This document shows positions 10,429 through 28,516 of a DNA stretch of 64,000 nucleotides, one piece after another; the stretch's first letter is position 1, and every line of letters begins with the position of its first letter. A model generated the notes under the pieces. That model searched no databases, was not told the DNA's origin, and was given only the letters and a program-made list of their open reading frames with translations. Origin of the DNA: Candidatus Methanomethylicia archaeon (lineage in GTDB: Archaea > Thermoproteota > Methanomethylicia > Culexarchaeales > Culexarchaeaceae); the NCBI GenBank assembly GCA_038727515.1, contig JAVYVS010000002.1:96001-160000 (forward strand), given 5' to 3'. A program made the translations under genes and the position numbers.

Positions 10429-10770
10429 GTGGTGGCTCTTTTGTGGTCTGAACTATTATATTCTCCAGTAATAGTTTTCATATTGATACTGATTTTAATG
10501 TATATTTCCTTTATATATTTGAAGAGGATTGGTATTAAGCCTAGGGGTAGTGAATTAAGTTTAGAACCTTATGCATGTGGTGAAGGTACTGATAGATTCC
10601 CCCCTGAAAAAGTTCAACTTAATGTTCAGTTATATAGATATGCTCTGTATTTTACAATATTTGATGTTGCAGCTTTCATTTTGCTATTATCTTTCAATGC
10701 AAATATTGTTTATGTTTTAGTTTATGTAGGGATCATATTATCTGCAATATTTTTCCTCCCTAAGAGGTGA
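10429..10770 (+). CDS. nuoA: NuoA-like membrane subunit
   Basis: PYACGE, YALYFTIFDV; 3 TM. Confidence 0.85.
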   Translation: MVALLWSELLYSPVIVFILILILMYISFIYLKRIGIKPRGSELSLEPYACGEGTDRFPPEKVQLNVQLYRYALYFTIFDVAAFILLLSFNANIVYVLVYVGIILSAIFFLPKR

Positions 10771-10774
10771 TTTT

Positions 10775-11200
10775 ATGGTTTCAATTGTAACTTGGTCTAG
10801 GGTTAGGAGTCCATGGATATTGTATATGTGTACTGGTGCATGTAATGCATGTGATATTGAAGTTTTAGCTGCTTTAGCTCCTAAGTATGATGTTGAACGT
10901 TTTGGAATTCTACTTAAGGGTAGTCCTAGACATGCTGATGTTCTAGTGGTTACTGGTGCAGTTACTAGGCAAGTTGCCCCTAGACTTAAAAGGATATATG
11001 AGCAAATGCCTGATCCAAAATTTGTTATTGCTGCTGGTACATGTGCAACTTCAGGTGGAGTTTATTGGGGTTGTTATAATGTTCTTGGTGGTGTTGATAA
11101 GGTTATTCCTGTGAGTATGTATATTCCAGGTTGTCCCGTCAGACCTGAAGCTGTTATTGATGGTGTTGCAAAACTCATATCTAAACTTTTATCTGGTTAA
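10775..11200 (+). CDS. nuoB: Group 4 [NiFe]-hydrogenase small subunit (NuoB-like)
   Basis: CNACDIE (CxxC, hydrogenase type), SPRHADVL, GTCA, IPGCPVRP. Confidence 0.92.
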   Translation: MVSIVTWSRVRSPWILYMCTGACNACDIEVLAALAPKYDVERFGILLKGSPRHADVLVVTGAVTRQVAPRLKRIYEQMPDPKFVIAAGTCATSGGVYWGCYNVLGGVDKVIPVSMYIPGCPVRPEAVIDGVAKLISKLLSG

Positions 11201-11215
11201 TGGAGGTTAAGTATC

Positions 11216-11677
11216 ATGTCGAGTTTTGATGTAAATTTTATTCTTAAAGATATTTCAAATGCATTTCCAAATAGGATTTTAGATTATAGATTTGATGGTC
11301 CTAGGAGTGTATTTATGAGTGTTGATCCAAGTGCTTTACATGATGTTATTAAGTATTTAAAGGATAAATATGATTTAAGGCATATTGTAACTATAACTGG
11401 GACTGATCTTGGTGATTCCATTGAATTAATCTATCATCTATCTCCTTTAAATCGTAGAATTCTTGTTAATATTAAAGTTAAGATTCCTAGGGATAATCCA
11501 CATTTCCCATCTATCGTTTCAATACTTCCTGGAGCCATTTTATATGAGAGAGAGGTTCATGATCTTTTGGGGGTTGTTTTTGATGGCCATCCATCTCTTG
11601 AAAGACTTATCCTACCTGATGATTGGCCTGATGGTGTTTATCCCCTTAGGAAAGATTGGAAGGTGGAGGTGAAGTAG
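11216..11677 (+). CDS. nuoC: NuoC-like subunit
   Basis: YEREVHDLLGVVFDGHP..PLRKD. Confidence 0.92.
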   Translation: MSSFDVNFILKDISNAFPNRILDYRFDGPRSVFMSVDPSALHDVIKYLKDKYDLRHIVTITGTDLGDSIELIYHLSPLNRRILVNIKVKIPRDNPHFPSIVSILPGAILYEREVHDLLGVVFDGHPSLERLILPDDWPDGVYPLRKDWKVEVK

Positions 11678-11678
11678 T

Positions 11679-12854
11679 TTGAGTTATTATACTATTCCAA
11701 TAGGACCTCAGCATCCAGCTATTAAAGAAGCTTTTCAATTCAACTTTGTTTTAGATGGTGAAGTTATTGTTGATGTTAAACCTAGATTTGGATTTGTTCA
11801 TAGAGGTATTGAGAAGGCTATGGAGCTTAGAACTTGGGTTCAAGGTATATTCTTGGCTGAACGTATATGTGGTATATGTAATGTTCCACATACAACATGC
11901 TATTGTCTTGCTGTGGAAAAGGTTTATGGTATAGATGTTCCTGAACGTGCTAAGTATCTTAGGATCATAATTAATGAGTTAAATAGGATTCATAGCCATC
12001 TATTGTGGATTGGGGTTTTAGGTATGGAGTTAGGTTTCCATACTGTGTTTATGTATGTTTGGAGGGATAGGGAGAGAGTTATGGATCTCGTTGAAATGAT
12101 TAGTGGTAATAGAGTTACTCCATCTATGAATTGTATTGGTGGAGTTGTTTATGATATTACCCCTGAAATGGAGCCAATTATTAAGAGGAATCTAGATTAT
12201 CTTGAGGAGAGAACTAAGTATTATAAGAAGGTGCTCATGGAAGATCCTAGTTTAAAGGCTAGAACTGAAGGTGTAGGTGTTTTAAGTAAGGATAAAGCTT
12301 TAGATCTATGTGCAGTAGGTCCTACTGCTAGAGCTTCTGATGTTAAGAGTGATGTTAGATTTGATGATCCATATACATTGTATGATGAAATAGATTTCAA
12401 TATGGTGACTTATTCAACATGTGATGTTTGGGGTAGAGCTATGGTTAGGGTTGATGAAACTATTGAATCTATAAAAGCTATTAGGCATGCACTTGAGAAG
12501 ATGCGTCCAGGGCCAATAAATGTTAAGGTTAAACGTATTCCACCTATTGGTGAAGCTACTGCTAGAGTTGAAGCTCCTAGAGGTGAACTTCTACACTATG
12601 TTAAATCTGATGGCAAAGAGGTTCCATATAGAGCTAAAATGAGGACTCCAACATTAGCCAATATACCAGCATTATGTGAAATGTTAAAGGGGCATTATAT
12701 TGCTGATATACCTGCTATTGTTGCTAGTATTGATCCATGTTATTGTTGTACTGAGAGGTTAATGTTCACAGATATTGGGAATGGTAAAAGTTGGATCTGG
12801 AGTTATGATGAACTTAGAAGGTATAGTCTTAAATATTATGGTTTGGGGGTGTAA
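11679..12854 (+). CDS. Group 4 [NiFe]-hydrogenase large subunit (NuoD-like, Ni-binding motifs intact)
   Basis: GPQHP, HRGIEK, L1 ERICGICN, L2 DPCYCCTER followed by an approx. 31-aa C-terminal extension. Confidence 0.93.
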   Translation: MSYYTIPIGPQHPAIKEAFQFNFVLDGEVIVDVKPRFGFVHRGIEKAMELRTWVQGIFLAERICGICNVPHTTCYCLAVEKVYGIDVPERAKYLRIIINELNRIHSHLLWIGVLGMELGFHTVFMYVWRDRERVMDLVEMISGNRVTPSMNCIGGVVYDITPEMEPIIKRNLDYLEERTKYYKKVLMEDPSLKARTEGVGVLSKDKALDLCAVGPTARASDVKSDVRFDDPYTLYDEIDFNMVTYSTCDVWGRAMVRVDETIESIKAIRHALEKMRPGPINVKVKRIPPIGEATARVEAPRGELLHYVKSDGKEVPYRAKMRTPTLANIPALCEMLKGHYIADIPAIVASIDPCYCCTERLMFTDIGNGKSWIWSYDELRRYSLKYYGLGV

Positions 12855-13816
12855 TGATGGATCCATTAATATTTATTCTTAGAATCTTAATATTTCCTGG
12901 TATACTCTTCCTACTATTTCTAGCATTTATATTTGAGTGGGTTGATAGAAAGGCTTATGCTAGATTTCAAAATAGGATTGGCCCCCTATATGCTGGCCCT
13001 AGTGGAATCCTTCAACCATTAGCTGATTTCATTAAGCTTATGGCTAAAGAGGATATAACCCCAAAATATGTTGATTCCATCTTCTTCAATAACATTCCAA
13101 TACTTGCAGTTGTTATACCATTATTTGCATCTCTATATATACCATTAGATGGTTCTCCAATTTTAATTCCCTTTGAAGGTGATATCGTCCTACTACTAAC
13201 TTTAATGACTATTTACACTATTTTTGTATTCATTGCTGGTTGGGCATCAACCAATAGGTTTAGTATTGTTGGTGCCACTAGAGCTATTCTACAATTTTTA
13301 GCTTATGAAATTCCAATGTTTATTTCAGCAGCTTCCGTTGTTATGTATGTTGGATCTACTTCTGTAACAATTATATCTCAAAATCAATTGATACCTTTAG
13401 CTTTACTTCAACCAATAGGATTCATAGTCTTTATTACAGCTCTTCAAGCAGAACTTGAACGTATACCCTTCGATATCCCTGAAGCTGAAAGTGAAATTGT
13501 TGCTGGATGGCTTACTGAGTATTGTGGTCCAAAACTTGCTTTCCTAAGACTTGCTGAAGATTTAAAGCTAGTCTTTGGATCTGCTTTAGCTACCGCATTA
13601 TTTCTAGGTGGTGGAAGCGGCCCTATACTTCCACCTATCGTCTGGTTTATTTTAAAGATGCTCTTCATAGTATTACTAAGCTCTTATATTAGATCTTTAT
13701 TTGCTAGGTTGAGGATTGATCAAATGGTTTCAGGTTGTTGGAGGATTTTAATTCCATTATCAATTCTACAATTTGTTTTAAGTAGGTTTTTGGGGGTTGG
13801 TTTTAGATGGCTATGA
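12854..13816 (+). CDS. nuoH: NuoH-like membrane subunit
   Basis: DRK..AR.QNRIGP, QPLADFIKL..KE, PFDIPEAESE. Confidence 0.93.
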   Translation: MMDPLIFILRILIFPGILFLLFLAFIFEWVDRKAYARFQNRIGPLYAGPSGILQPLADFIKLMAKEDITPKYVDSIFFNNIPILAVVIPLFASLYIPLDGSPILIPFEGDIVLLLTLMTIYTIFVFIAGWASTNRFSIVGATRAILQFLAYEIPMFISAASVVMYVGSTSVTIISQNQLIPLALLQPIGFIVFITALQAELERIPFDIPEAESEIVAGWLTEYCGPKLAFLRLAEDLKLVFGSALATALFLGGGSGPILPPIVWFILKMLFIVLLSSYIRSLFARLRIDQMVSGCWRILIPLSILQFVLSRFLGVGFRWL

Positions 13817-14163
13817 TACGTGAAGTATTTAAACACCTATTTAAACGACCAGTTACAGTTAAATATCCATTTGAGAGAACTCCTACTGCTGAGAGGTATA
13901 GGGGGAAGCATATATTCTATATTGATAGATGTGTTGGTTGTGGATTATGCGCCCGTGAATGTCCAGCTATGGCTATTGAACTAATTTCCTCAGATAAGAC
14001 CATTAATGGTAGAAGACCAATATTCTATTTGGATAGATGTATATTTTGTATGCAGTGTGAAAGGATATGTCCCAGGGCAGCTATACATTTAACACAATTC
14101 TATGAATTGGCTTCCCATGATCGTAAGTTGCTTGTACATAGTGAAGAAAAGGTTAGTTCTTGA
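13807..14163 (+). CDS. nuoI: NuoI-like 2x[4Fe-4S] subunit
   Basis: CVGCGLCARECP and CIFCMQCERICP. Confidence 0.92.
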   Translation: MAMIREVFKHLFKRPVTVKYPFERTPTAERYRGKHIFYIDRCVGCGLCARECPAMAIELISSDKTINGRRPIFYLDRCIFCMQCERICPRAAIHLTQFYELASHDRKLLVHSEEKVSS

Positions 14164-14258: not shown

Positions 14259-15521
14259 ATGAAGGTTTATGCAGATTTACATTTACATTCAAAGTATAGT
14301 GGTGGTTCTAGTGTTCAAATGAATATTCCAACATTGGTTTCATATGCTTTAATTAAAGGTTTAAATCTTCTTGGTACTGGTGATTGTCTACATCCAAGTT
14401 GGCTTAGAGAATTGAAAAACGATCTTGTACATGCTGGTGGAGGATTCTATCATTATAGGCTTAATTCCAACGTTTTCTTTATTGTTAATTGTGAAGTTGG
14501 TACGGTTTTCGAATTTGGAGGTAAATCTAGAAGGGTTCATCATGTTATTTTAATGCCTAGTTTAGAGGTTGCTGAACAACTTTCCGATGTTTTATCACGT
14601 TATGGTGATGTAATTTCCAATGGGCGTCCAATATTTAATATGCATCCATCAGAACTTGTCGATATAGTTTTTAGTATTGAATCCTCTTGTTTCATATTTC
14701 CAGCTCATATATGGACTCCTTGGTGGAGTATGTTTGGATCTTTTAGTGGTGTTGATAATGTTAAGGATTGTTATGGTGATAGAATTGATAAGATTTATGC
14801 TATTGAAACTGGTTTGAGTAGTGATCCAGAGATGAATTGGCGTGTAAGTCAATTGGATAGATTTTCAATTCTTAGCTTCTCAGATTCTCATTCACCATAT
14901 CCATTTAGACTTGGTAGAGAAGCTTGTTTATTCGATCTTAATGATATGAATTATAGAGAACTTATAGAAGCTATTAAATTTAGGGAGAAGGGTAAGTTCT
15001 TAATGACTATAGAAGTTGATCCAGCTTATGGTAAATATCATTGGTCTGGTCATAGGAATTGTAATGTTGGGCCTATCCCTCCTGAAGAAGCTAGAAAAAT
15101 GAATTATAAATGCCCAGTTTGTGGGAAAAAACTTACTAAGGGTGTTGATGATAGAGTTGAAGAACTTGCTGATAGAAGTAGAGGATTTAGACCTAAAAGT
15201 TATATACCCTTCATAAAGGTTTTACCATTACAAACTATAATAGCTTTCAGTATGGGTGTTAGTGAAGATGATTTTTCTAAATTTAATAGTGGTAGAATTT
15301 GGGATATATATTCCAATCTAGTTTCTAAATTTGGTTCTGAATTTAATGTTTTATTGAATGCTCCAATAAATGAGATTGCAAAAATATCTTCTCAAACAAT
15401 TGCATCTTACATTAAATGTATGAGGGAAGGTAAATATTCAATTACACCTGGTTTTGATGGTGTTTATGGCAAGATAAGTACATTTGGTTTGAAAATGGAT
15501 TTAAGAAACTTTATAACCTAA
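14259..15521 (+). CDS. endoQ: Endonuclease Q family (PHP domain plus Zn finger)
   Basis: ADLHLHSKYS, GTGD, PAHIWTPW, ETGLSSD, SDSHS, GKYH..HRNC, CPVCG, PGFDGVYG. Confidence 0.88.
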   Translation: MKVYADLHLHSKYSGGSSVQMNIPTLVSYALIKGLNLLGTGDCLHPSWLRELKNDLVHAGGGFYHYRLNSNVFFIVNCEVGTVFEFGGKSRRVHHVILMPSLEVAEQLSDVLSRYGDVISNGRPIFNMHPSELVDIVFSIESSCFIFPAHIWTPWWSMFGSFSGVDNVKDCYGDRIDKIYAIETGLSSDPEMNWRVSQLDRFSILSFSDSHSPYPFRLGREACLFDLNDMNYRELIEAIKFREKGKFLMTIEVDPAYGKYHWSGHRNCNVGPIPPEEARKMNYKCPVCGKKLTKGVDDRVEELADRSRGFRPKSYIPFIKVLPLQTIIAFSMGVSEDDFSKFNSGRIWDIYSNLVSKFGSEFNVLLNAPINEIAKISSQTIASYIKCMREGKYSITPGFDGVYGKISTFGLKMDLRNFIT

Positions 15522-15522
15522 A

Positions 15523-16197
15523 TCAACCTTTACCCTTCTCTATCAACAATTCCTTCCATCTACCTTTAATTATCATTATTATAAGCCCCCTCGGGCCTTC
15601 TCTATCAAGTATATCTGCAACCTTTATCCAATCTATTTTCAATATGCTTAATGTTGTTATTGTTAGTATTATCAATGAAATCAATATTCCATATATATTT
15701 TCTTCACCGAAAACTATGTTTAAGTATTCCGTAAAGTATTTTCCAGTTAATGCTACTACTGTACTTAATATGATCTTTCCTAGCGTTGTAGCTATGAAGA
15801 ATTTTATGAAGCTATATTTTATGAGTCCTAGTGGTATTATCACTACATCATCTGGTGATGGCGTTACTGTTACGAAGAATACTGCTATCGCTCCATACTT
15901 ACCCAATAATTCTTTAAATTTCTCTATTTGCTTTCTCTTTTCTTCACTTGTAATTAATTTACTTCCTTCAAATCCCAACATATATACTACGCTTTTTCCA
16001 ATTGCTCCACCAAAGCCACTCACAATTCCAAGTATTATTGGGTCTACTTGTAGGTATCCTGCCATATAATATATTGCCAATAAGTAGGGTATTGGTAGAA
16101 ATGGTATAAAATTTCCAAGTATAGATACAATTAAAGCTCCAATATATCCATAGTTTAAGGCTATCTTCATCATTAAGTCAGAGATCCATTCAAACAA
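15523..16197 (-). CDS. DedA/VTT (YqaA-like) membrane protein
   Basis: PFLPIP, TPSPDD..IPLG..F..F motifs. Confidence 0.85.
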   Translation of the reverse strand: MFEWISDLMMKIALNYGYIGALIVSILGNFIPFLPIPYLLAIYYMAGYLQVDPIILGIVSGFGGAIGKSVVYMLGFEGSKLITSEEKRKQIEKFKELLGKYGAIAVFFVTVTPSPDDVVIIPLGLIKYSFIKFFIATTLGKIILSTVVALTGKYFTEYLNIVFGEENIYGILISLIILTITTLSILKIDWIKVADILDREGPRGLIIMIIKGRWKELLIEKGKG

Positions 16198-16300: not shown

Positions 16301-16558
16301 GTGAAGTTGTTGAGCTTTAATTTTGTTAGTTTGATTTTAGGTGTTTCCATAGTGGCTTTAGCAGTTTTAAGTTTGGAATTTAAGAAGATTATGCATTCAA
16401 TCATAACTTTATGTGGTTTTAGTATTGTTTTGGCTATTGCATTCTTCTATTTATCTGCACCATTGGTTGGAGTATTTCAATTGGCTGTTTTAGCTGGTGC
16501 AGTTACAGTATTGTTTCTAGTTGCTTTAATGTTGACTGGTAAAGTGGAGGTGGATTAA
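16301..16558 (+). CDS. NuoJ N-terminal half / MbhD-like subunit
   Basis: APLVGVFQLAVLAGAVTVLF (Q...YAGA-like motif); 3 TM. Confidence 0.8.
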   Translation: MKLLSFNFVSLILGVSIVALAVLSLEFKKIMHSIITLCGFSIVLAIAFFYLSAPLVGVFQLAVLAGAVTVLFLVALMLTGKVEVD

Positions 16559-16559
16559 C

Positions 16560-16838
16560 TTGAAGTTTAGTGAATTGATTGGAACTATGTTGGGTTTAGC
16601 TTTAGCCTTTATACTCACGCAACTCTTAGTTTATGGTGTTTCTAATGTTGGTTTATTTGCTTATGATAATGCTCCATTAACTATTCTAAAGCCTGATTAC
16701 TCCTTCCATAATCTGGGTGTTTATATAAGTGAACTTTTATGGGTTGATTGCAGTTTTGATGTAATAGCTCAAGCCATACTCATATTTGCTTCAGCCATAG
16801 GTGTTATTGCACTTTTACGTGAGGAGGTGAAGCATTAA
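16560..16838 (+). CDS. NuoJ C-terminal half / MbhE-like subunit
   Basis: LW...FDVIAQAILIFASAIGVIALLR. Confidence 0.7.
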   Translation: MKFSELIGTMLGLALAFILTQLLVYGVSNVGLFAYDNAPLTILKPDYSFHNLGVYISELLWVDCSFDVIAQAILIFASAIGVIALLREEVKH

Positions 16839-17155
16839 TGTCCACTGAACCATACACATTCATAGCTGTTTCAGGAGTTTTATTTTGTATTGGCATGTAC
16901 GGCCTTATGACTAAACGTAATATGATTAAAATGGTTATTTCACTTGAGATAATGTTTAGTTCAGCTATATTGAATTTAGTGAATTTTTCATATTTTAGAA
17001 TTTTTGGATTTATAGACCCAATGGCTCACGTTGTAGCTATAATTGCTATTTCTGTTGAAGCCTGTTTAATAGGTGTTGCTTTAGCATTTGTTATAAATGC
17101 TTATAAACATTATAAGACATTGGACATTAGAGAGTTGAGGAGGTTGAGGTGGTAG
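16838..17155 (+). CDS. nuoK: NuoK-like subunit
   Basis: IGMYG..KRNMIKMVISLEIM. Confidence 0.88.
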   Translation: MSTEPYTFIAVSGVLFCIGMYGLMTKRNMIKMVISLEIMFSSAILNLVNFSYFRIFGFIDPMAHVVAIIAISVEACLIGVALAFVINAYKHYKTLDIRELRRLRW

Positions 17156-18657
17156 GTTTTATGGAAATATTATATCCAATGCTAATATTAGCATTCTTCG
17201 GTGTAACAACGCCAATTATTGGTTGGATTTGTGAGAGGTATGGTTTACGTAATCTTGTTAGCGGTTGGGCTTTATTTGGTTTTCTAACTTCCCTAATGGC
17301 TTGCCTTAAACTAGTAGGTTTACTCTATGAAAAGCCAATTATAAGGTATAGTATATACCAAGCTGTTGATGGTTTTAAAATTGGCTTTACAGTTTTAGAT
17401 TGGCTTAGCTTCACATTTACCCTTGGCTTCATCCTTTTAGGTTTAATATCCACTTTGCATTCAATTGATTACATGTCTCATGACACAGGTTTACCAGCTT
17501 ACTACTCCCTACTATTGCTAATGGTTTGCGGTATGATTGGAGTTATTATGGCAGGTGACTTCCTAACGCTATATGTATTCTGGGAGTTGATGAGCATATC
17601 CTCATATTGTTTGGTTGGATTTAGAAAGCATCTCTGGGAGCCTGTGGAAGCAGGCTTCAAATATCTATTGATGAGCGCTGTAGGTTCAGCCTTCATATTA
17701 TTCTCAATGTCATATCTATATGGTTTAACTGGATCCTTAAGCTTCGCTCAAATAACTCTCTCCCTAATGAATGCTAAATCTTCTCCACTACTATACCTAC
17801 TATTCATATTATTGATCGTAGGCTTCGGCGTTAAAGCTGCTATTGTACCATTTCATTCATGGCTTCCAGATGCACATCCAGCTGCCCCCAGCCCTATAAG
17901 TGCTATGCTTTCAGGTGTAGTAATAAAAACTGGCGTTTATGCAATAATAAGAACTTCATATCTAATCTTTGATGTTTCAATTGTGGATTATAGATTGATG
18001 TTAGCTTTCCTATCAGTATTGACCATGAGTGTTGGAAACATTCTAGCTTTAGTTCAAAAGGATATTAAACGTTTACTTGCATATTCAAGTATAGCTCAAA
18101 TTGGATATTTACTATTGGCTTTATCCTTAGGAACGGAATTTGGTTTAATGGCTGGTATTGTACACTTCTTTAATCATGCCTTAATGAAGGGACTTGCATT
18201 TCTCTGCGCTGGATCAATCATACATGAACTTAATACGAGGAATCTTGATGAAATTATTGGTGTTGGTAGAAGAATGCCTATAACTGGTGTGTCACTATCT
18301 ATAGCACTTCTCTCACTAGCTGGAATGCCATTTCTCAATGGTTTTATAAGTAAGTATTTAATATTTGCAGCAGCCATAGATGCTCAAGCATATTTATTGA
18401 CAGCCATAGGATTACTAAATAGTGCTATTGGAGTAGTATACTATATCCGTGTAATACAGACAATATTTAGGAAGCCTATTGAAAGTGTTATGAAGGCAAG
18501 TGAATCTTCACCATTTATACTGTCTTCCTTAATAATCCTATCAGTACTTTGCATAGTCTTAGGCGTATGGCCTCAACCATTATCTTCAATGGCTGAAACA
18601 GCAGCACACTTCACAATGCAAAAACTCCTTTACATAAGGTCGATAATACCATTATAA
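17149..18657 (+). CDS. Antiporter-like ion-translocating subunit (NuoN/MrpD/MbhH-like)
   Basis: FWELMS, EAGFKY, KAAIVPFHSWLPDAH, KRLLAYSSIAQIGY; follows nuoK. Confidence 0.9.
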   Translation: MVGFMEILYPMLILAFFGVTTPIIGWICERYGLRNLVSGWALFGFLTSLMACLKLVGLLYEKPIIRYSIYQAVDGFKIGFTVLDWLSFTFTLGFILLGLISTLHSIDYMSHDTGLPAYYSLLLLMVCGMIGVIMAGDFLTLYVFWELMSISSYCLVGFRKHLWEPVEAGFKYLLMSAVGSAFILFSMSYLYGLTGSLSFAQITLSLMNAKSSPLLYLLFILLIVGFGVKAAIVPFHSWLPDAHPAAPSPISAMLSGVVIKTGVYAIIRTSYLIFDVSIVDYRLMLAFLSVLTMSVGNILALVQKDIKRLLAYSSIAQIGYLLLALSLGTEFGLMAGIVHFFNHALMKGLAFLCAGSIIHELNTRNLDEIIGVGRRMPITGVSLSIALLSLAGMPFLNGFISKYLIFAAAIDAQAYLLTAIGLLNSAIGVVYYIRVIQTIFRKPIESVMKASESSPFILSSLIILSVLCIVLGVWPQPLSSMAETAAHFTMQKLLYIRSIIPL

Positions 18658-18741
18658 ACGGTATACAATAAAAAATTTAATAATCACATATCTACATAAT
18701 CTTTATCGAAAATTTCCTCCTCTTCTGCGGAGTTGTGCGAT

Positions 18742-20346
18742 ATGTCAAGTATAATTAAGTCAGCTGAAATGTGCAAAGTTCAACTAGTGTTGCCAAAGCA
18801 CTATTACTATGATGTCAAATTGGCTTTAATCAATTTAAAGGTTTTTCATCCAGATGAATGGTGGGTTAATGAAGAATTTGTAGAGTTTATTAAAGAATTG
18901 AAAGCTGAAGAAAATATAGATTTAAAATCGTTAAGTAAACCTCATGAGGAAAGTGCTAAGTTTAAATCTTTATTGGATAAGGTGAATCGATTAATTAATA
19001 CCCTTGGGTTGGAAGCATCAACTATTACATTTAAGCTAAAGCATGTAGATAGGAGTTATTTAAATGATCTTGAGAATAAGCTAAACTTCATTGAATCAAA
19101 AATCAATGAGTTTTCACAATCCCCTGAAAACGTCGAACTTAAAGTTAAGTTAAATGAAGTATGCCAGAATTATGAAAATATTATTTTAGAAGCAAAACAA
19201 GTTTTTGAAAGTGTTTTAGATAGGGATGAAAATACCTTCCATAGTGATTACTTTTCATATATGTTTGGATGGGTTCCAAAGGATAGGGTTAACGAAATTA
19301 TTGAAACCATTGAGAAAACTACAAATAAATCAGTAGTAATCTCAGTTTCACAACCTGGCAAACATGATAATCCCCCATTTCTATCTAAATCTCCAAAACC
19401 TCTAAAACCATTTGAATCTCTAATAAAAACTTATGATATTCCATCAACCCATGAAATTAATCCAACATTAATCGTTAGTATAACCTTCCCATTACTATTT
19501 GGATTAGCTTTCGCGGATGTTGGCCATGGACTCTTACTAGCACTATTTGGAATTGCAACTTACATACTTAAACGTAAAGGGTTCTCTGGCGGTGAAATGA
19601 TCAATTTAGTTCTCTCTGGAGCTGAATTATATATTTTATGTGGTATTGCAGCTATATTTGGCGGTTTAATGTTCGGTGAATTCTTCGGTTTTCACATACA
19701 TCATCCACCTCTAGAATTCATACTTGAAGCTATACCGGGAATTGGTCATGCTTTTAGTCCATTGGAAGAACCTATGAAAATGTTTAAACTCTCACTAATG
19801 GTTGGAATTATGCATATAAGTTTAGGATTAACATTAAGTGTAATCAACGCTGTACTTGAGGGAGAATATAAAAAGGCTTTCTTTGGACATATATGCTGGT
19901 TATGGTTCTATTTAGGTGCAATGTACTTAGGTTTATTCGTATATAAATTTGATATTAGTAAATGGATGTCTGGCAGTTTAACCATACCATTAGTGGTAGC
20001 ACCATTAGTCTTAATGCTTGTAGGAATGATGTTAACTGAAAATCCAATAGATGGCTTCGCTCATACATTTGAAGCAGCAATAAGCTCACTTTCACATACA
20101 GTATCATATGGACGTATACTTGCATTATCACTTTCCCATGGAATGTTAAGTCAATTATTATCTTCAGCAATCCCAGCACTTGGAGCTGCAGGCTATATAG
20201 TCCTAGCTATAGGAACAATAACCCTAGTAATGGCTCTTGAAGGACTTGTATCATTCACACATGTACTAAGGCTTACATGGGTTGAATTTGGCTTTAAATA
20301 CTTCCGTGGTGGTGGAGAAGAATATAAACCTCTAGGTGTTAAATAA
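18742..20346 (+). CDS. atpI: A/V-type ATPase subunit I (a), with shortened N-terminal soluble domain
   Basis: GWVP, FADVGHG, SYGRILAL (essential Arg), HVLRLTWVEF, YKPL; about 534 aa. Confidence 0.9.
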   Translation: MSSIIKSAEMCKVQLVLPKHYYYDVKLALINLKVFHPDEWWVNEEFVEFIKELKAEENIDLKSLSKPHEESAKFKSLLDKVNRLINTLGLEASTITFKLKHVDRSYLNDLENKLNFIESKINEFSQSPENVELKVKLNEVCQNYENIILEAKQVFESVLDRDENTFHSDYFSYMFGWVPKDRVNEIIETIEKTTNKSVVISVSQPGKHDNPPFLSKSPKPLKPFESLIKTYDIPSTHEINPTLIVSITFPLLFGLAFADVGHGLLLALFGIATYILKRKGFSGGEMINLVLSGAELYILCGIAAIFGGLMFGEFFGFHIHHPPLEFILEAIPGIGHAFSPLEEPMKMFKLSLMVGIMHISLGLTLSVINAVLEGEYKKAFFGHICWLWFYLGAMYLGLFVYKFDISKWMSGSLTIPLVVAPLVLMLVGMMLTENPIDGFAHTFEAAISSLSHTVSYGRILALSLSHGMLSQLLSSAIPALGAAGYIVLAIGTITLVMALEGLVSFTHVLRLTWVEFGFKYFRGGGEEYKPLGVK

Positions 20347-20414
20347 ATGCATAAATCAATAACGTTTATAAATAAATCAACATTATTGTAGTAATAGTTG
20401 TTGGAGGAAGAAAT

Positions 20415-20864
20415 ATGGATGAAACGATAATCGGTCTTATAGGCGTTCTACTTTCAAGTTGCATACCAATATCAGGTGCAGCCTACGGAATTGTAACCGC
20501 AGGTATATCTATGGCTGGAGCTGGAACTGAACGCCCTGAAATAGTTACAAAGCTACTTTTAGCAGTTGTATTAGCTGAAGCTATAGGAATCTATGGATTA
20601 CTTACCTCAATAATGCTCATAGGAAAACTCTCCATAATCCTTGCTTCATATGAAGCAGCCATGAAAGCTTTATCAGCAGGTTTAGTAATGGCTGTATGTG
20701 GTTTATTAGCTTCAATAGCAATTGCATATACTGGATCAGCTATGGCTGGAGCTGGAGTTGAAAAACCTGAAATAGTTACAAAGACTCTTCTAGCAGTTGT
20801 ATTAGCTGAAGCTTTAGCAATCTATGGATTACTAATATCCATAATGTTAATAGGCACTATATAA
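20415..20864 (+). CDS. atpK: A/V-type ATPase proteolipid subunit K (c), two hairpins, both with Glu
   Basis: ERPE..LAEAIGIYGL and EKPE..LAEALAIYGL. Confidence 0.93.
   Translation: MDETIIGLIGVLLSSCIPISGAAYGIVTAGISMAGAGTERPEIVTKLLLAVVLAEAIGIYGLLTSIMLIGKLSIILASYEAAMKALSAGLVMAVCGLLASIAIAYTGSAMAGAGVEKPEIVTKTLLAVVLAEALAIYGLLISIMLIGTI
20511..20833 (+). repeat. Internal direct repeat in atpK (20511-20602 vs 20742-20833)
   Basis: 92-nt copies with 11 mismatches by hand count. Confidence 0.85.
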
Positions 20865-20877
20865 GTGGAGTGCCTAA

Positions 20878-21546
20878 ATGATGAATAGTAAAAGCAACGA
20901 ACTAGAGAAACTAAATGAACAATTAAAGTATACTAGGAGAAAGTATAAAAAGACCATTATAAATTCAAAGATAAAACTTTTGAAAACAAAAATTGCATCC
21001 AAAAATTGTATAACCAAAATTGAAGCTTATAAAGGGAATTGCATCAATAGAGTTGTAAATACTAAAGATATGACTATTAAACTTGTAGAAAATTCCATCA
21101 AAAATAATGTTAATATGATAAGCAGTGAGGGTTTCGTTCCTGATGAAAGTCTAGTTAAACTTTACTCTTTAATTGATAAAACAACATACATTCTAAAGTC
21201 CAAACCATCAAAGATACCAAGTTTTAGACAATACATTTCTAAAGTTTTTTCTGCGATTTCCAATAGCTTATCTACTCTACGTATATACTTTGCTAGAAAG
21301 CTTGCTTTTCCACCAATACTTTATTCTAAATCTTTCACTATGTCTATAATTGAAGTTAAATCATGGCATAGTAACTTATATTTAAGATTGACTACTGGAT
21401 TTAAAGATTTTAGAAAAACTTTATTGAATTATAAATCTAAGCTTGACAAATATGATTCAATTTTACTTTCATCAAAGGCTAGGTGTAATAATGCCATCCA
21501 AGTATCTATATCCAAGGGTAAAACTATTACTCGAAGATTTCTATAA
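20878..21546 (+). CDS. Basic hypothetical protein, possibly a highly diverged A-ATPase subunit D
   Basis: Co-oriented behind atpK; 222 aa; N-terminus NELEKLNEQLKYTRRKYK resembles the AtpD ELxxLKxxLxxAxRG pattern; weak similarity only. Confidence 0.4.
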   Translation: MMNSKSNELEKLNEQLKYTRRKYKKTIINSKIKLLKTKIASKNCITKIEAYKGNCINRVVNTKDMTIKLVENSIKNNVNMISSEGFVPDESLVKLYSLIDKTTYILKSKPSKIPSFRQYISKVFSAISNSLSTLRIYFARKLAFPPILYSKSFTMSIIEVKSWHSNLYLRLTTGFKDFRKTLLNYKSKLDKYDSILLSSKARCNNAIQVSISKGKTITRRFL

Positions 21547-21562
21547 TAAATATTATAAATAT

Positions 21563-22618
21563 TTAAATTATTATTTCCTCCATAATTTTTCGTTTTGGTA
21601 TTTCAAGTGATTTCCCATATATTATCACTTTTAAATTTCTTATTTCAGTCCATTTCTTAGTTAAGTATGCCAGTGTTGGTGATATATCGTATTGAAATCC
21701 CTTTTTCCAAACTTTTTGATAACCCTTATATATTTCTTTATTAAATAGTTTCTCTAATTCTTCTATTCCTCCCTTATTTATTGCTTCTATACTTTGCTTT
21801 AATAACGGTTTATATTCTTTTTCCATTAATTCGGTTAACACTTCCTTTTGATCTTCTTTTTCAAAAGCTCTTCTTATCTTTTGCATATTTATTTTGTATG
21901 TTGGGGTTATGATGTTTTCTTCTAGTTCATTCCAATCTATTTTAAGTTTCTTTGCTCTTAGGGTGTTTTTTATATTTGTTAAATCTATTTCTATTCCCAG
22001 CATTTCTCTAACACTTTTTGAGCTTTTACCATCAAGTCTTTTTGCTTCATTTATTATAGCTTCATATACTATTTTATCTATTTTTGCTTCAACAATTTTT
22101 GCATCTTCTTCTTTAAATTCTTTTTCAAATATTTTATGTATTGGTATCGGCACTCCTATTTCAACTAGTTTTTCCAATAATTCCCTTAGGTTTTTTGATT
22201 CTTCATATACTTTAACGTATTCTTCAATTTTGAGTCCTAGTGGGATGGGTGTTAAATGTTGTTTTAATCTTTCTACTGAAGCTCCTAATGTTTTTAATCT
22301 TATTGCAGCCTTTATGTTTTCAGCTTCATATTTCATCATATATAATGCTATTACTCTCATTGCTTGTTTCGGAAGCCATTTTAATACTTTTAGATATGAT
22401 CTCGTCAATGATTTTATCAATATTTTCTCCATTTCTATTGGTGTTGGTGTTTCTTGAAGACCTCTTACTTCTTCTCTATATGGAGTTTCCATTAATACCT
22501 TTACAATTTCTTTATAGGGTGCTTCTATGATTTTATTGTAATCCTCTTTTCTCAGGTATTCCCTTTTTAATCCCCTAATTTTTGTGTTTATGAATCCATA
22601 TCTAATTATTCCAAGCAA
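21563..22618 (-). CDS. atpC: A/V-type ATPase subunit C (d)
   Basis: YGFINTKIRG, ETPY, EIDLTNIK..LR, EIRNLKVI..GK; 351 aa. Confidence 0.9.
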   Translation of the reverse strand: MLGIIRYGFINTKIRGLKREYLRKEDYNKIIEAPYKEIVKVLMETPYREEVRGLQETPTPIEMEKILIKSLTRSYLKVLKWLPKQAMRVIALYMMKYEAENIKAAIRLKTLGASVERLKQHLTPIPLGLKIEEYVKVYEESKNLRELLEKLVEIGVPIPIHKIFEKEFKEEDAKIVEAKIDKIVYEAIINEAKRLDGKSSKSVREMLGIEIDLTNIKNTLRAKKLKIDWNELEENIITPTYKINMQKIRRAFEKEDQKEVLTELMEKEYKPLLKQSIEAINKGGIEELEKLFNKEIYKGYQKVWKKGFQYDISPTLAYLTKKWTEIRNLKVIIYGKSLEIPKRKIMEEIII

Positions 22619-22673: not shown

Positions 22674-23225
22674 CTATTTATACTTAATTGGTTTTAAGAT
22701 TATGTATGTTGTTATTATCAATAACCATATTACTACTCCAATAACTACTCCAATTCCAGCATAAAACTCACTTATCCTACTTCCAATAGTATATCCCATT
22801 AATATTAATGGTATCATTAAAGATAGTAATGCTATACTCCTACTTATCATGAATCTAAATAATCTCTTACCTTCATCTTCAATTCTTTCATCTACAACTT
22901 TCTCCTTCACCTCTTTGACTTTCTCTTTTACTTTAATACTTTCTTTCTCCTCTAATCCCCCTCTTCTTGAGATAACGGTTGCCTTTTCAATTACTTCAGA
23001 TAATGTATTGTATGGTTTATTATGCCTTAAGTTTATTCTACATGTTTCATATAATATTTTCATTGGTATCCATTCTTCTCCATTAATCCATTTTTCTAAT
23101 TCTTCTTCCTTTATCTTTAATCTTTTTAGATATTCATCTCTTCCTAATGTTTCAATAGCTGTTTTTAAAGCTTTCAAAACTTTTTCTGTAGGTTCAATAT
23201 ATATTTCTTCTGTCATTTCATCCAT
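22674..23225 (-). CDS. Hypothetical membrane-anchored protein with N-terminal HTH-like domain
   Basis: LKRLKIKEEELEKWINGE..IP (XRE-like); two C-terminal TM helices. Confidence 0.55.
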   Translation of the reverse strand: MDEMTEEIYIEPTEKVLKALKTAIETLGRDEYLKRLKIKEEELEKWINGEEWIPMKILYETCRINLRHNKPYNTLSEVIEKATVISRRGGLEEKESIKVKEKVKEVKEKVVDERIEDEGKRLFRFMISRSIALLSLMIPLILMGYTIGSRISEFYAGIGVVIGVVIWLLIITTYIILKPIKYK

Positions 23226-23332: not shown

Positions 23333-25507
23333 GTGGATGATTTGCTTAATTATTCACCTTGGCTTGTTTGGATTATTCCAATTATAGGTGCACTTTTAAC
23401 ACCTTTAATTGCACGTTTAGGTGATAGAATTCGAGATATCTCTGCTGTCTTCTTCTCTTTTCTAGCTGCTTTAATGGCTACAGTAAACTTTTCATATGTT
23501 ATGTCTGGAGGTATGTATATTCCAGGGGTTGGATATGTTAAGGTTCCCATTGATTGGCGTTTTAAATGGTTTATTGTTCCTGGGTTCCATTTAGATGTTG
23601 GAGTTTTACTGGATCCTCTTAGTGCTTTAATGGGTGTTATTGTTGCTTGGATTTCATTTTTAATTATGATTTATAGCTTGGGTTATATGCATGGTGAAGA
23701 AGGTTTAACTAGATACTGGTTTTTCATGAATTTCTTTATTGGGAATATGCTTCTACTCGTCATGTCCGATAATATTCTACAGATGTTATTTGGGTGGGAG
23801 GGTGTTGGACTATGTAGTTATCAATTGATTGGCTTCTATTATAGTGATGAAAGGAAGCGTTGGATTGGCAATGTTCCTCCATCACATGCTGGTATGAAAG
23901 CCTTCATAACCACTAAAATTGGAGATATATCCCTCATGATAGCTTCCTTCATAATATTCACTATATCTGGAACTTTTAATTTCCTAGATCTTCAAGCAAA
24001 TTATGAATGGATAATTGAACTTGCTAAGATGGGGTTGATAATTCCAGTTGTATTATTATTCTTTGGTGGACCTATTGGGAAATCTGCTCAATTTCCATTG
24101 CATGAATGGCTTCCAGAGGCTATGGCAGGCCCTACTTCAGTTTCAGCATTAATACATGCTGCTACTATGGTTAAAGCTGGAGTTTACCTTGTTGCTAGAA
24201 TGGTTCCAATATTTTATGGAAGTTTTACCCATGCGATTGCACATGTTCATGGATTAGCCATTGAAAACTTAATTTTACAAGCTAGAAACAGCTTCTTCTT
24301 AACTGTTGCATGGATTGGTGCATTTACAGCTTTTCTAGCTGCTACTCAAGCCATGGTTAGTAGAGAATTGAAGAAAGTTCTTGCGTATTCTACGATTTCT
24401 CAAATTGGTTATATGATGTTAGGTTTAGGTGCTGGAGGTTTAATGGAAAATGTAGCTATAGGTTTTGTTGCTGGAGTATTTCATTTAGCTAGTCATGCGA
24501 TCTTTAAAGCTTTGCTATTTATGGCTGCTGGTGCAGTTATTCATGCATGTGAGAGTACTGATATGTTTAATATGGGTGGTATTAGACGTGATATGCCTAT
24601 AACTTTTGTTTGTATGCTTATTGGAGCTTTATCTCTTTCAGGTATACCTCCACTTAGTGGTTTTTGGAGTAAAGAAGCTGTTTTCACAGCTTGTTTAGTT
24701 TCTGGTCAGTATATACTATTGGCTTTTGCAGCTGTAACTGCCGCTATAACATTCTTCTATAGTTTAAGAATGATTGCAATAACATTTCTTGGAGAGAAGA
24801 GTGAGCATTTAGAGGAATTGGAACATGAAGGTCATCATGTTCATGAAGTTTCAAAGGTTATGTGGATTCCATATGCAATATTAGCTATCTCAACTATTGC
24901 CATAGGTTTGATAGGTCCATTTTTCGAAGAGTACTTACATGAATTCCTAGAGCCTTCTATTCATATGATTCATCATGAAATTGCAATTTCAAGTGTTGTT
25001 TATGGTGCTGAAGTTGAAGTTTCTGGTTTTCCAACGAAATTAACAACTATGCTAATAACTTTATGCATGCTTATCTTAGGAGGTTATCCAGCATATTTAA
25101 TGTATATTTCACGTAAAGTTGATCCTGAATCCTTTGTCGAATCTCATGGGTTAAAGGGCATATACAACTTCTTATGGAATAGATGGTATATTAATCCAAC
25201 CTATTATGGTGTATTTGTATATCCTTTGATTCATGGTAGTGTTAAAGTCTTTAGAGGCTTTGAGAAAGCTGTTATTGATAGATTTAATTATGTTTTAGCG
25301 AATATAGTATTGAGCTTTAGCAATATTGTTTATAGATATTTTGAAAAGCCTATTTTAGATGGATTTAATTATTTTGTAGCTAATGTTTTCATGGTGTTTT
25401 CACAGATTTTCAGAAGAATTCAAACTGGTGTTTCTTCATTTAACATTATGGGTATTGGTTTAGGTATACTAATATTGATATTAATGATACTATTCGGTTT
25501 TATTTAA
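23333..25507 (+). CDS. nuoL: NuoL-like antiporter subunit with extended lateral helix
   Basis: GWEGVGLCSY, KSAQFPLHEWLPEAMAGPTSVSALIHAATMV, GFWSKE, QTG. Confidence 0.94.
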   Translation: MDDLLNYSPWLVWIIPIIGALLTPLIARLGDRIRDISAVFFSFLAALMATVNFSYVMSGGMYIPGVGYVKVPIDWRFKWFIVPGFHLDVGVLLDPLSALMGVIVAWISFLIMIYSLGYMHGEEGLTRYWFFMNFFIGNMLLLVMSDNILQMLFGWEGVGLCSYQLIGFYYSDERKRWIGNVPPSHAGMKAFITTKIGDISLMIASFIIFTISGTFNFLDLQANYEWIIELAKMGLIIPVVLLFFGGPIGKSAQFPLHEWLPEAMAGPTSVSALIHAATMVKAGVYLVARMVPIFYGSFTHAIAHVHGLAIENLILQARNSFFLTVAWIGAFTAFLAATQAMVSRELKKVLAYSTISQIGYMMLGLGAGGLMENVAIGFVAGVFHLASHAIFKALLFMAAGAVIHACESTDMFNMGGIRRDMPITFVCMLIGALSLSGIPPLSGFWSKEAVFTACLVSGQYILLAFAAVTAAITFFYSLRMIAITFLGEKSEHLEELEHEGHHVHEVSKVMWIPYAILAISTIAIGLIGPFFEEYLHEFLEPSIHMIHHEIAISSVVYGAEVEVSGFPTKLTTMLITLCMLILGGYPAYLMYISRKVDPESFVESHGLKGIYNFLWNRWYINPTYYGVFVYPLIHGSVKVFRGFEKAVIDRFNYVLANIVLSFSNIVYRYFEKPILDGFNYFVANVFMVFSQIFRRIQTGVSSFNIMGIGLGILILILMILFGFI
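25259..25420 (+). repeat. 2 x 81-nt (27-aa) tandem duplication in the NuoL amphipathic helix
   Basis: FEKAVIDRFNYVLANIVLSFSNIVYRY / FEKPILDGFNYFVANVFMVFSQIFRRI, also similar at DNA level. Confidence 0.85.
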
Positions 25508-25535
25508 TTTAAATTTTCTTTATATTAATTTTGGA

Positions 25536-26966
25536 GTGGTGAATTTGAAAGTTAGAGTTAGAGGTATATACTCTACAGCTCTATCTAAACTTTTAATTGA
25601 TGAAGGTTATAGTATTGTTCAACCGTCAAAGGTTATTAAGGATAGATTTAATATTGGCGATGAAATGGATTATATGTTTTATGATGTTGATATTCTTGAT
25701 CGTGATGATAAGCATGGAGTATACATTTTGACTTCCAATGAGAATTTAAGAACTATCATAGACATTATTCATAGAAATCTTTTTGATGCTATTATTAGAA
25801 TTGCACCGTATGATGTCAATGGAATTTATAAAGGTGTTGTAGAAGCTATTGATAAAGTTAGAAATTTAGCTTTTATATCCATTATGCCTAAGCTCTTAGG
25901 TGTATTACCGTTATCTAGAGATTCCCCTCTTAAAGTTGGTGATGAAATTCTTGTTCAAGTGGATAAGAGTAGTTTAGGTTTAAGGATTCCACGTTTAACT
26001 ACACGTATAGGTTTAGCTGGTAGGTATGTTGTATTATTTAAAGGTGATGGTTTAAAGTTTAGTAGGAAGCTTACTGGAAGTTTCATTGATTATATGAATA
26101 TATCTGAGACATTAAAAGGAGTTCTGCCTGAAACTTTTGGAGTTATCATTAGATCTTCTTTTAAAAGTGCTTCTAAAGATGATATTTTAAATGAAATTTC
26201 AAATTTATTGGATAACTACAATCGATTGATGGATTTATTTAGGGTTTCACCTTCAAGAAGGCTGATAGTTAATGGGTTAAAGGTATTGGATGTTGAGTTT
26301 CCATATAATTCTAAGAGGATTCTTGATTCAATTAGGAGTTTTGTTACTTCAACAATAAATTTTCATCATTACTTTAAGATTTTAGGTGAAAATTATTCTA
26401 AAATGGTTGATAATGTTGAATCCCTATTATCTAAAGGTTTGAATGTAGATGATACCTTACTTAATATAGATCTTCTTAGAGGGGAATTTGCTTCTAATTT
26501 GAGAGTTATTGAACATGTTAAATTGAATGGAAAAGTCATATTGTTTAGGAACATTGAATCCATTGATTTTAATGGTAAGTTTTTAACTATTTATAGGAGG
26601 GTTAAATCGCCTGGATTTTATGATGGTTTAAACATAGTTAAGATGGTTGGTGATAAAATTGTTACGAAGATTGGTTTTGGAGATTGGTATTATGTTTCTC
26701 GATATTATTCTTCTGATGGTCAATTTCTAGGTTCATATATTAACATAAATACTCCAATTGAAATTTATGGTGATAGATTGAGATATGTGGATTTAGAAGT
26801 TGATGTATGTGTTAAATCAAATGGTGAATTTAAAATTTTAGATATGGATCATTTATATAAAGCCTTTAAAATGGGTGTTGTATCTGAGAGTTTATTTAGA
26901 TTCATATCCAAACTTGTGGATAATATTAAATCTAAAATTATACATGGAGAATTTGATGATATTTGA
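25536..26966 (+). CDS. fau-1: FAU-1 / RNase E-G-like AU-binding ribonuclease (S1 + DUF402)
   Basis: VRVRGIYSTALSKLL; Y.NINTPIE..RYVDLEVDV. Confidence 0.88.
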   Translation: MVNLKVRVRGIYSTALSKLLIDEGYSIVQPSKVIKDRFNIGDEMDYMFYDVDILDRDDKHGVYILTSNENLRTIIDIIHRNLFDAIIRIAPYDVNGIYKGVVEAIDKVRNLAFISIMPKLLGVLPLSRDSPLKVGDEILVQVDKSSLGLRIPRLTTRIGLAGRYVVLFKGDGLKFSRKLTGSFIDYMNISETLKGVLPETFGVIIRSSFKSASKDDILNEISNLLDNYNRLMDLFRVSPSRRLIVNGLKVLDVEFPYNSKRILDSIRSFVTSTINFHHYFKILGENYSKMVDNVESLLSKGLNVDDTLLNIDLLRGEFASNLRVIEHVKLNGKVILFRNIESIDFNGKFLTIYRRVKSPGFYDGLNIVKMVGDKIVTKIGFGDWYYVSRYYSSDGQFLGSYININTPIEIYGDRLRYVDLEVDVCVKSNGEFKILDMDHLYKAFKMGVVSESLFRFISKLVDNIKSKIIHGEFDDI

Positions 26967-27019
26967 ATAATAAAGGTTTTATATTGACTTGAGATAAATT
27001 TTGTTGTATTTATTGGGGT

Positions 27020-28516
27020 GTGGTTTGCGTGTCGTTTGAAGGCTTAGTTTTATCATTAATTTTAGTTCCAATATGCTTTCTACCGGTAACGTATATAGCT
27101 GGTAGACGCCTTGGTAGTAAATGTGGTTGGGTCACCTTTGTCCCATTACTATACTCATTTTTAATATCATTAATACTTCTATCCGCTGTTTCTCTTAAGG
27201 GTTCCATCTACGTGGTATTTCCACTAGCTCCTTCTGTTGGTTTAAATTTTGGATTTCTAATTGATGGTTTAAGTTTACCCATAGTGTTTACAATAACATT
27301 GTTATGTATGGTTGTTTCAATATTCTCAATACCCTACATGGAGCATCATATTGGTGAAGATAAAGCTCAACATGCAGCATACTATGCCTTATATCTACTT
27401 TATGCATTGGGGATGGTTGGTACAGCTTTATCCACAAATTTAATTCAATTCTACTTCTTCTGGGAGCTTATGCTTCTTCCATCTTGGGCTTTAATAAATA
27501 TTTGGGGTTATGGTGAAAGGGAGAAGATTGCATTGAAATACTTTATATATACACATGTGGGTGCATTAGCTCTTTTAGCTGGTATATTAAGCTTATACTC
27601 CATATTTGGGACATTTGAACTTCCATTAATAATATCGTTAAGTAAGTTTATTCATGTTGGAGATATGATTAAGTGGATTACCATAGCCATGTTCTTTGGA
27701 TTTGCTGTTAAAATGGCTATAGTCCCATTACATACATGGCTTCCAGATGCACATGCTGAAGCTCCAACACCTATAAGTGCACTTTTATCTCCAGCTATGA
27801 TTGGACTTGGTGGATATGCAACTGTTAGGATAATATATTCTGCTTTTCCAGAGGTTTGGGATTCCCTCAGTTTCATATTGAGTCTTCTAGCTTTAATAAC
27901 AATGGTTTATTCTGGTGCTATGGCTTTAGCTCAAGATGATATTAAGAGGCTCTTAGCATATTCCAGTGCTTCACAGATGGGATATATTTTAATGGGTCTT
28001 GCAAGTGCAGATCCTATGGGTATTGGTGGAGCTATGTATCATTATGTCAGTCATGGAACTTGTAAAGCTATACTCTTCATGGTTGCAGGGGCAATAATTC
28101 TTGAAGCTCATGGTTTGAGAAGTATATCCAAACTTGGAGGTTTAGCTAAGAAAATGCCTTTAACAGCTACAATGGCGTTAATAGGATTTCTAGGTATTGC
28201 TGGTACACCTCCATTAAATGGTTTTCAAAGTGAATGGCTTATATTTACTGGTGCATTTCATGGAGCTATTGAAGCTCATGATACCTTAAGACTTATTGTA
28301 GTTGCACTTGGACTTATTGGAAGTGTATTAACAGCTGGTTATGCCCTTTGGACTATGAGGAGAGTATTCTTTGGAGAATTACGTGAAGGTTTAGAAGAAG
28401 TTCATGAACCATCAATATACGTTTTAGCTCCAATGATGGTCCTAGCAATATTCACAGTTATACTTGGCATATACCCAAGGCTTTTAATGGATTTATTAAC
28501 ATCCTTTCTAAGTTAA
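27020..28516 (+). CDS. nuoM: NuoM-like antiporter subunit
   Basis: DGLS, FFWELMLLP, KYFIYT, VKMAIVPLHTWLPDAHAEAPTPISALL. Confidence 0.92.
   Translation: MVCVSFEGLVLSLILVPICFLPVTYIAGRRLGSKCGWVTFVPLLYSFLISLILLSAVSLKGSIYVVFPLAPSVGLNFGFLIDGLSLPIVFTITLLCMVVSIFSIPYMEHHIGEDKAQHAAYYALYLLYALGMVGTALSTNLIQFYFFWELMLLPSWALINIWGYGEREKIALKYFIYTHVGALALLAGILSLYSIFGTFELPLIISLSKFIHVGDMIKWITIAMFFGFAVKMAIVPLHTWLPDAHAEAPTPISALLSPAMIGLGGYATVRIIYSAFPEVWDSLSFILSLLALITMVYSGAMALAQDDIKRLLAYSSASQMGYILMGLASADPMGIGGAMYHYVSHGTCKAILFMVAGAIILEAHGLRSISKLGGLAKKMPLTATMALIGFLGIAGTPPLNGFQSEWLIFTGAFHGAIEAHDTLRLIVVALGLIGSVLTAGYALWTMRRVFFGELREGLEEVHEPSIYVLAPMMVLAIFTVILGIYPRLLMDLLTSFLS

Follow-up and report, generated by a model that had tools for sequence, protein, structure and literature searches.

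In '2M' complex I (Chadwick et al. 2018, ISME J 12:2668; as presented in PMC6606698 and PMC9040806), the lateral helix of NuoL carries an insertion of about 26 residues. The length of this helix is in use as a sequence signature of extra pumps and of a higher ion-per-electron ratio. Insertions in NuoL were also described by Yu et al. 2022 for complexes of 'Ca. Manganitrophaceae' that have the standard three pumps, and the cited portion of that account leaves the point open (PMC9040806). Hfo is an Fpo-like [NiFe] hydrogenase of eleven subunits from Bathyarchaeia; the part of Loh et al. 2021 that deals with it also places Hfo-like clusters in Ca. Methanomethylicus and Pyrodictium and states that no group 4g enzyme has been characterised (PMC7886697). 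The stretch analysed here, referred to as the window, comprises 64,000 nucleotides of contig JAVYVS010000002.1 (positions 96,001 to 160,000) from a Candidatus Methanomethylicia archaeon (assembly GCA_038727515.1, the source genome G000). It encodes an eleven-subunit complex, apparently of the Hfo type, whose NuoL subunit contains two tandem copies of the 27-residue module of the lateral helix. The additional copy is conserved and is modelled as helix, and the gene set around it is the unchanged set of a three-pump enzyme.

The lateral helix, or strap, lies at the C-terminus of NuoL between two transmembrane (TM) helices that anchor it. The gene and the elements of its C-terminal part are arranged as follows.

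23333..25507, plus strand: nuoL/hfoL, NuoL-type antiporter-like subunit of 724 residues (PF00361, 7.5e-66; PF00662, 6.7e-17)
25028..25108, plus strand: TM15, residues 566-592, start anchor of the lateral helix (a helix in the AlphaFold2 (AF2) model, 566-592)
25181..25258, plus strand: first segment of the lateral helix, residues 617-642, with the WYINPTYY motif; start of the modelled helix 617-696
25259..25339, plus strand: unit 1 of the tandem module, residues 643-669, absent from relatives of canonical length
25340..25420, plus strand: unit 2 of the tandem module, residues 670-696, equivalent to the single unit of canonical NuoL
25421..25501, plus strand: QTG motif and TM16, residues 697-723, far anchor of the strap (modelled helix 701-723); QTG is kept in relatives

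The chain thus runs from TM15 through the first helix segment, in which WY occupies residues 618-619, to unit 1 (FEKAVIDRFNYVLANIVLSFSNIVYRY), unit 2 (FEKPILDGFNYFVANVFMVFSQIFRRI), QTG, and TM16. Aligned with each other, the two units agree at 13 of 27 residues and at 51 of 81 bases. In 200,000 shuffles 13 identities never arose, and the next-best 27-residue window anywhere in NuoL has six. WY and QTG lie 79 residues apart, compared with 51-53 in one-unit homologues. The original prediction had described two tandem units before QTG, about 79 residues from WY to QTG, and a helix longer by one module than that of canonical single-unit NuoL, and all of this was confirmed. Tandem Repeats Finder detects no repeat at the DNA level at 25259-25420, so that the repeat is visible in the protein only and the duplication must be old. 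Unit 1 has been maintained much like its surroundings: within the family its mean pairwise identity is 70.7%, compared with 75.0% and 78.5% for the rest of the helix, and it retains the motif E..(I/L)D..NY of unit 2.

In the AF2 monomer model of NuoL (mean predicted local distance difference test score, pLDDT, of 91.8), residues 617-696 form one unbroken helix of 80 residues that is followed by TM16 at 701-723. The possibility that the extra 27 residues loop out was rejected on the unbroken helix of this monomer model. Escherichia coli NuoL superposes on the model with a Z-score of 47.5 and a root-mean-square deviation (rmsd) of 1.8 Å over model residues 6-638, and the superposition ends at model residue 638, which corresponds to chain residue 558. 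Solved NuoL chains fit the model at low rmsd no further than the first segment of the lateral helix; forcing TM16 into the superposition raises the rmsd to about 14 Å. The model therefore puts TM16 one module further out.

Both units are present in seven genomes of the order, namely the source genome, all five others of its family, and G011, a genus of a sister family. One unit is found in the five other genomes of the order (G006-G010), whose sole unit aligns with unit 2, and in the class-level loci L021-L028, for which the C-termini were read; the class-level genomes G014, G017, and G022 have two units of their own. NuoL measures 722-724 residues in the long-helix group and 694-697 in the short-helix group, and in the alignment the 27-residue block is the only NuoL indel that separates the two groups. 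The lengths of M and N do not change between them, and the gene order from nuoA to speH is identical. A tree of M, N, K, and the core of L resolves as (family f1, (G011, short-helix clade)) with 92-100% support, and the simplest history is a single gain of the unit in the stem lineage of the order, followed by a single loss. A single origin of the duplication fits the sequence of G011, whose unit 1 shares 14 of 27 residues with unit 1 of G003 and 10 of 27 with its own unit 2. One unit together with three genes is the state of the outgroups G026, G013, and Bathy54, whose N-type subunit is shared with the order, so that a three-gene background is the more likely setting in which the duplication arose. 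A FastTree analysis places the NuoL of the order near a two-unit, four-gene bathyarchaeal NuoL; descent from a four-gene ancestor was nevertheless set aside as less likely, since the units here are far more alike than those of the bathyarchaeal protein.

The remaining genes of the complex and the genes that interrupt them are listed below.

10429..14163, plus strand: homologues of nuoA-B-C-D-H-I (Pfam matches), D being the [NiFe]-hydrogenase large subunit
11679-12854: nuoD homologue (large subunit), with CGICNVPH at residue 64 and DPCYCCTER at residue 352, conserved across the order
14259-16197: EndoQ-like PHP-domain gene and VTT-domain membrane gene, between nuoI and nuoJ
16301-16558 and 16560-16838, plus strand: nuoJ as two open reading frames (ORFs) of 85 and 92 residues (PF00499/PF13244)
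16838-17155, plus strand: nuoK (PF00420)
17149..18657, plus strand: nuoN-type antiporter-like subunit of 502 residues, directly after nuoK (PF00361, 5e-82; N-type clade)
18733-22618: A-type ATPase genes I, c, and C and an unassigned ORF of 222 residues, between nuoN and nuoL
22674..23225, minus strand: orf183, divergent from nuoL, with two C-terminal TM helices and no Pfam family
25536..26966, plus strand: fau-1-like gene between nuoL and nuoM, not part of the complex (DUF402 and RNase_E_G)
27020..28516, plus strand: nuoM-type antiporter-like subunit of 498 residues with a PF00662 N-terminal domain (PF00361, 9.3e-75; archaeal M-type clade)

All eleven homologues (NuoA, B, C, D, H, I, J, K, L, M, and N) are matched by Pfam within the window. 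An intact Ni-Fe site had been claimed, and both ligand motifs are indeed found in the NuoD homologue. With the motifs defined as C[GS][ILV]C[AGNS]xxH for L1 and [DE][PL]Cx[AGST]Cx[DE][RL] for L2, CGICNVPH fits L1, and DPCYCCTER has all ligand cysteines but a cysteine at the [AGST] position; this third cysteine of the L2 motif is found throughout the order. Behind the L2 motif the chain continues for about 30 residues, as in processed large subunits, which fits C-terminal processing by HycI; the genome encodes HycI and two copies of HypD. No NuoEFG or FpoFO input module occurs within the gene cluster, the rest of the genome not having been searched for one. By these sequence features the complex is classified as an Hfo-type (Fpo/Nuo-like, 11-subunit, group 4g) [NiFe] hydrogenase.

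A genome-wide search with Pfam PF00361 covered the source genome (93.6% complete) and its relatives. Five matches were obtained in the source genome: L, M, N, and one in each of two Ehd/Ehe-like operons. The three antiporter genes first noticed in the window (17149, 23333, and 27020) are thus the only ones that Pfam recognizes there, and no fourth gene was found by this search anywhere in the source genome outside other hydrogenase operons. The idea that a fourth gene lies elsewhere was not borne out, as the only additions to L, M, and N are genes inside two separate hydrogenase operons, and the proposed four antiporter modules gain no support from a genome-wide gene content of L, M, and N. 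In the relative G003 (99% complete) the search returned L, M, N, and one antiporter gene of the Ehd/Ehe type; in G011 it returned exactly L, M, and N. According to the antiporter subunit tree, four-gene archaeal complexes combine archaeal M, L, and N with a bacterial-type M, and no bacterial-type M belongs to the present complex in that tree.

The relation between helix length and pump number was followed beyond the order. Among the 150 best representatives from a search of 1.8 billion proteins, the WY-QTG distance falls into classes near 25, 52, 78, and 104 residues, in steps of about 26. The motif-based measure failed for 59 of 145 representatives and yields false values such as 106, 133, and 160, and the tallies are restricted to clear cases. 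Helix length was set against nearby antiporter genes in a sample of 80 species-representative loci, with gene counts limited to loci that have at least 5 kb on both sides. One-unit helices occur at 22 loci (19 with three genes, none with four, two with two, and one with one), and two-unit helices at nine (six with three genes, three with four, and none with any other number). Four pump genes are always accompanied by a two-unit helix in this tally. G022 and L032 combine two units with four genes; G014 and L031 combine two units with three genes. L031 is a metagenome contig on which an Hfo-like cluster adjoins hypD, hypE, hypC, hypF, and hycI; the N gene of L031 seems to be broken into two pieces (133 and 283 residues), possibly by a frameshift. 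The metagenome contig L138 (9161-13253) is a minimal two-pump relative, with a J1-J2-K-L-M cluster, only two antiporter genes, and a NuoL that has no repeat unit (WY-QTG distance of 25). The helix length is never below the gene number and is often one unit above it, and the helix therefore acts as a permissive ruler, not as a pump count. Since a longer helix usually comes without a fourth gene, the helix-length signature is unsafe when used alone.

The explanation that is placed first, tentatively and with slightly less than even confidence, is that of a three-pump (L, M, N) enzyme of the Hfo type in which the extra module is a conserved, tolerated surplus on the strap helix. The strap of NuoL has been lengthened by about 40 Å, the width of one antiporter subunit, through an old in-frame tandem duplication of its 27-residue docking module. 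For the assembled complex we infer the position of the extra module and of TM16: the strap would continue past NuoN along the membrane arm or otherwise rest on the cytoplasmic membrane surface. Its length would set the maximum number of pump positions that can be spanned and not the number present. Several points weigh against this explanation. To our knowledge, no solved structure has a surplus strap. The pLDDT of the lateral helix is only 68-83, in a model that is a monomer. Unit 1 is conserved like the rest of the helix and has kept its docking motif, a pattern that points to a specific contact with a protein and not to slack. TM16 of G011, finally, resembles TM16 of its short-helix kin about as closely as NuoL does overall and gives no sign of adapting to a new docking site.

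The strongest competitor, which we regard as possible although rather doubtful, is a four-pump enzyme made from three genes, in which one antiporter subunit (NuoM or NuoN) would occupy two adjacent positions (L-M-M-N). In that case, adding or deleting a single 81-nucleotide repeat would convert the enzyme from three pumps to four or back and would alter its ion-per-electron ratio. The added helix length equals one module, and such a step accompanies a fourth gene in G022, L032, L049, L050, and L057; helix lengths in general fall into classes about 26 residues apart. The conservation of unit 1 with its docking motif speaks for four pumps as well, as does the probable origin of the duplication in a three-gene background (outgroups G026, G013, and Bathy54), and the unadapted TM16 of G011 would suit a second copy of M or N. 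Against these points, no precedent is known to us among complex I relatives for a single gene product in two positions, and M and N show no indel. Nor is there a burst of change on the branch on which the unit was lost: the residues specific to the long- or short-helix group number eight in M, 12 in L, two in N, and one in K, compared with three in the fau-1 control. All of them are conservative changes, and being few and confined to one branch they permit no conclusion. The original prediction had taken the separate position of nuoM behind fau-1 as a hint that it is used twice. The position itself is real (plus strand, with a gap of 53 bp between fau-1 and nuoM); the fau-1-like gene, however, stands at the same place in all relatives, with long or short helix, and nuoM also lies apart behind it in the sister clade with a canonical helix, so that the placement is uninformative on double use. 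At the level of genes, the ground for refutation that the original prediction itself had named is found, in that close relatives limited to three antiporter genes share the helix length. A structure prediction of two NuoM copies scored 0.00 and was run without controls; it counts neither for nor against self-association. The narrower version, an L-M-M-N [NiFe] hydrogenase in which one NuoM-type product takes two neighbouring positions and the repeat number is a one-mutation switch of stoichiometry, is unlikely and a little less probable again. If it were true, the two states of the switch would be represented by the long-helix clade and by its short-helix sister. The surplus strap is given a slight preference, as the mismatch is widespread, no other part of the complex changes with it, and double use has no known precedent.

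It is improbable that the extra module binds an additional, non-antiporter subunit, for which orf183 (22674-23225) would be the candidate. The protein has a soluble N-terminal part followed by its two TM helices, and no Pfam family matches it even at E = 5. Each of the seven long-helix genomes of the order has a homologue next to nuoL or near it, and none was found in the 34 other relatives searched (the five short-helix genomes of the order and 29 further ones). The short-helix genomes form one clade, however, so that a single branch explains the loss of both the unit and orf183 and their co-occurrence is a single evolutionary coincidence. Two TM helices are also far narrower than 40 Å, the soluble part is weakly like a helix-turn-helix regulator (atlas score 0.8, a lead only), the gene points in the same direction as atpC and could be part of the ATPase gene set, and the other two-unit lineages G014 and G022 are without it. 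The association of orf183 with the duplication is a lead and not evidence.

That a fourth antiporter gene is unassembled, or borrowed from an Ehd/Ehe-like hydrogenase operon, is very hard to credit: the source genome is incomplete at 93.6% and does hold two further antiporter genes, but these sit inside complete operons of their own, G003 has only one such gene and G011 none, and the pattern recurs in all seven long-helix genomes.

The two operons in question, L007 (G000:C2:290000-307698) and L008 (G000:C1:173000-192000), are group-4 hydrogenase-like and HdrBC-linked. Each encodes Fer4, an HdrB-like CCG protein, homologues of NuoB, C, D, H, and I, and one antiporter subunit, and one of the two is preceded by gcvH. 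They resemble the Ehd/Ehe complexes of Methanomethylicia and Culexarchaeia (PMC9723716).

Several features of the main cluster recur elsewhere. The EndoQ-like gene has no Pfam match and is named from its N-terminal HxH motif and a zinc-finger motif; its interruption of the cluster, together with the VTT gene, is kept across the whole order. The split of nuoJ, with an MbhD-like first ORF as in Mbh, is conserved in relatives and is also seen in the Hfo-like clusters L031, L137, and L138. Cluster L032 has a single nuoJ, and its D subunit has no NiFeSe_Hases match. Nuo-like membrane genes are linked to atpI/c/C in the distant archaeal loci L032, L045, and L046 as well, and at the site between nuoN and nuoL the ATPase genes of the short-helix sister clade form a different set that is more divergent. 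The best named relatives of the M subunit belong to 'Candidatus Methanomethylicia archaeon' (87% identity), and mcrA was not found in the genome (93.6% complete). The host is a Methanomethylicia/Culexarchaeia-like archaeon of the hot-spring type.

Two directions have been proposed for such enzymes. Ferredoxin oxidation with release of H2 was put forward for Culexarchaeia by Kohtz et al. (PMC9723716), and H2-driven reduction of ferredoxin, powered by the membrane potential, was put forward for Hfo in the cited part of Loh et al. 2021 (PMC7886697). By our own estimate from textbook potentials, ferredoxin-to-H2 chemistry would pay for about 1-3 ions per electron pair. With only so few ions affordable, three or four pumps would fit reverse running or ion exchange better. 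A higher ion-per-electron ratio that serves uphill ferredoxin reduction, as originally suggested, is reasonable only if a fourth pump exists. The order offers a clean natural comparison, in that its sister clades share all eleven subunit genes and their arrangement and have NuoL proteins that differ by one 27-residue block. A strap that serves as a ruler for recruiting another copy of a subunit and a strap with a tolerated surplus would have different implications for the evolution of four- and five-pump enzymes.

Compared with canonical NuoL/Nqo12/ND5 (E. coli, 3RKO; Thermus thermophilus, 4HE8), the protein shares the core fold, TM15, the start of the lateral helix, QTG, and TM16, and it differs in having 58 helix residues between the last superposable residue and TM16 instead of about 32. 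Hfo has the same eleven subunits of the Nuo/Fpo type, the L1 and L2 motifs in D, and no NuoEFG or FpoFO in the cluster, whereas the cluster described here is interrupted by EndoQ-like, VTT, ATPase, and fau-1 genes; the passages of Loh et al. 2021 that describe Hfo do not mention the L subunit or the antiporter modules (PMC7886697). With 2M complex I, as far as the cited excerpts describe it, the present NuoL has in common a lateral helix that is longer by one antiporter width, here the 27-residue block. A second nuoM gene, however, is present in 2M and not here, and the catalytic subunit here keeps its [NiFe] ligands. A further parallel is provided by Complex_I_1 and Complex_I_2 of 'Ca. Manganitrophaceae', which, in the cited portion of that study, likewise have an insertion in the NuoL helix and the standard three pumps (PMC9040806). 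Those complexes are bacterial and of the quinone type, whereas the present one is archaeal and of the hydrogenase type, and here a sister clade has lost or never had the unit while the gene set is unchanged. A mismatch between helix length and pump number was thus already known from bacteria (PMC9040806, in the part cited), and the complex described here adds an archaeal case of the hydrogenase type.

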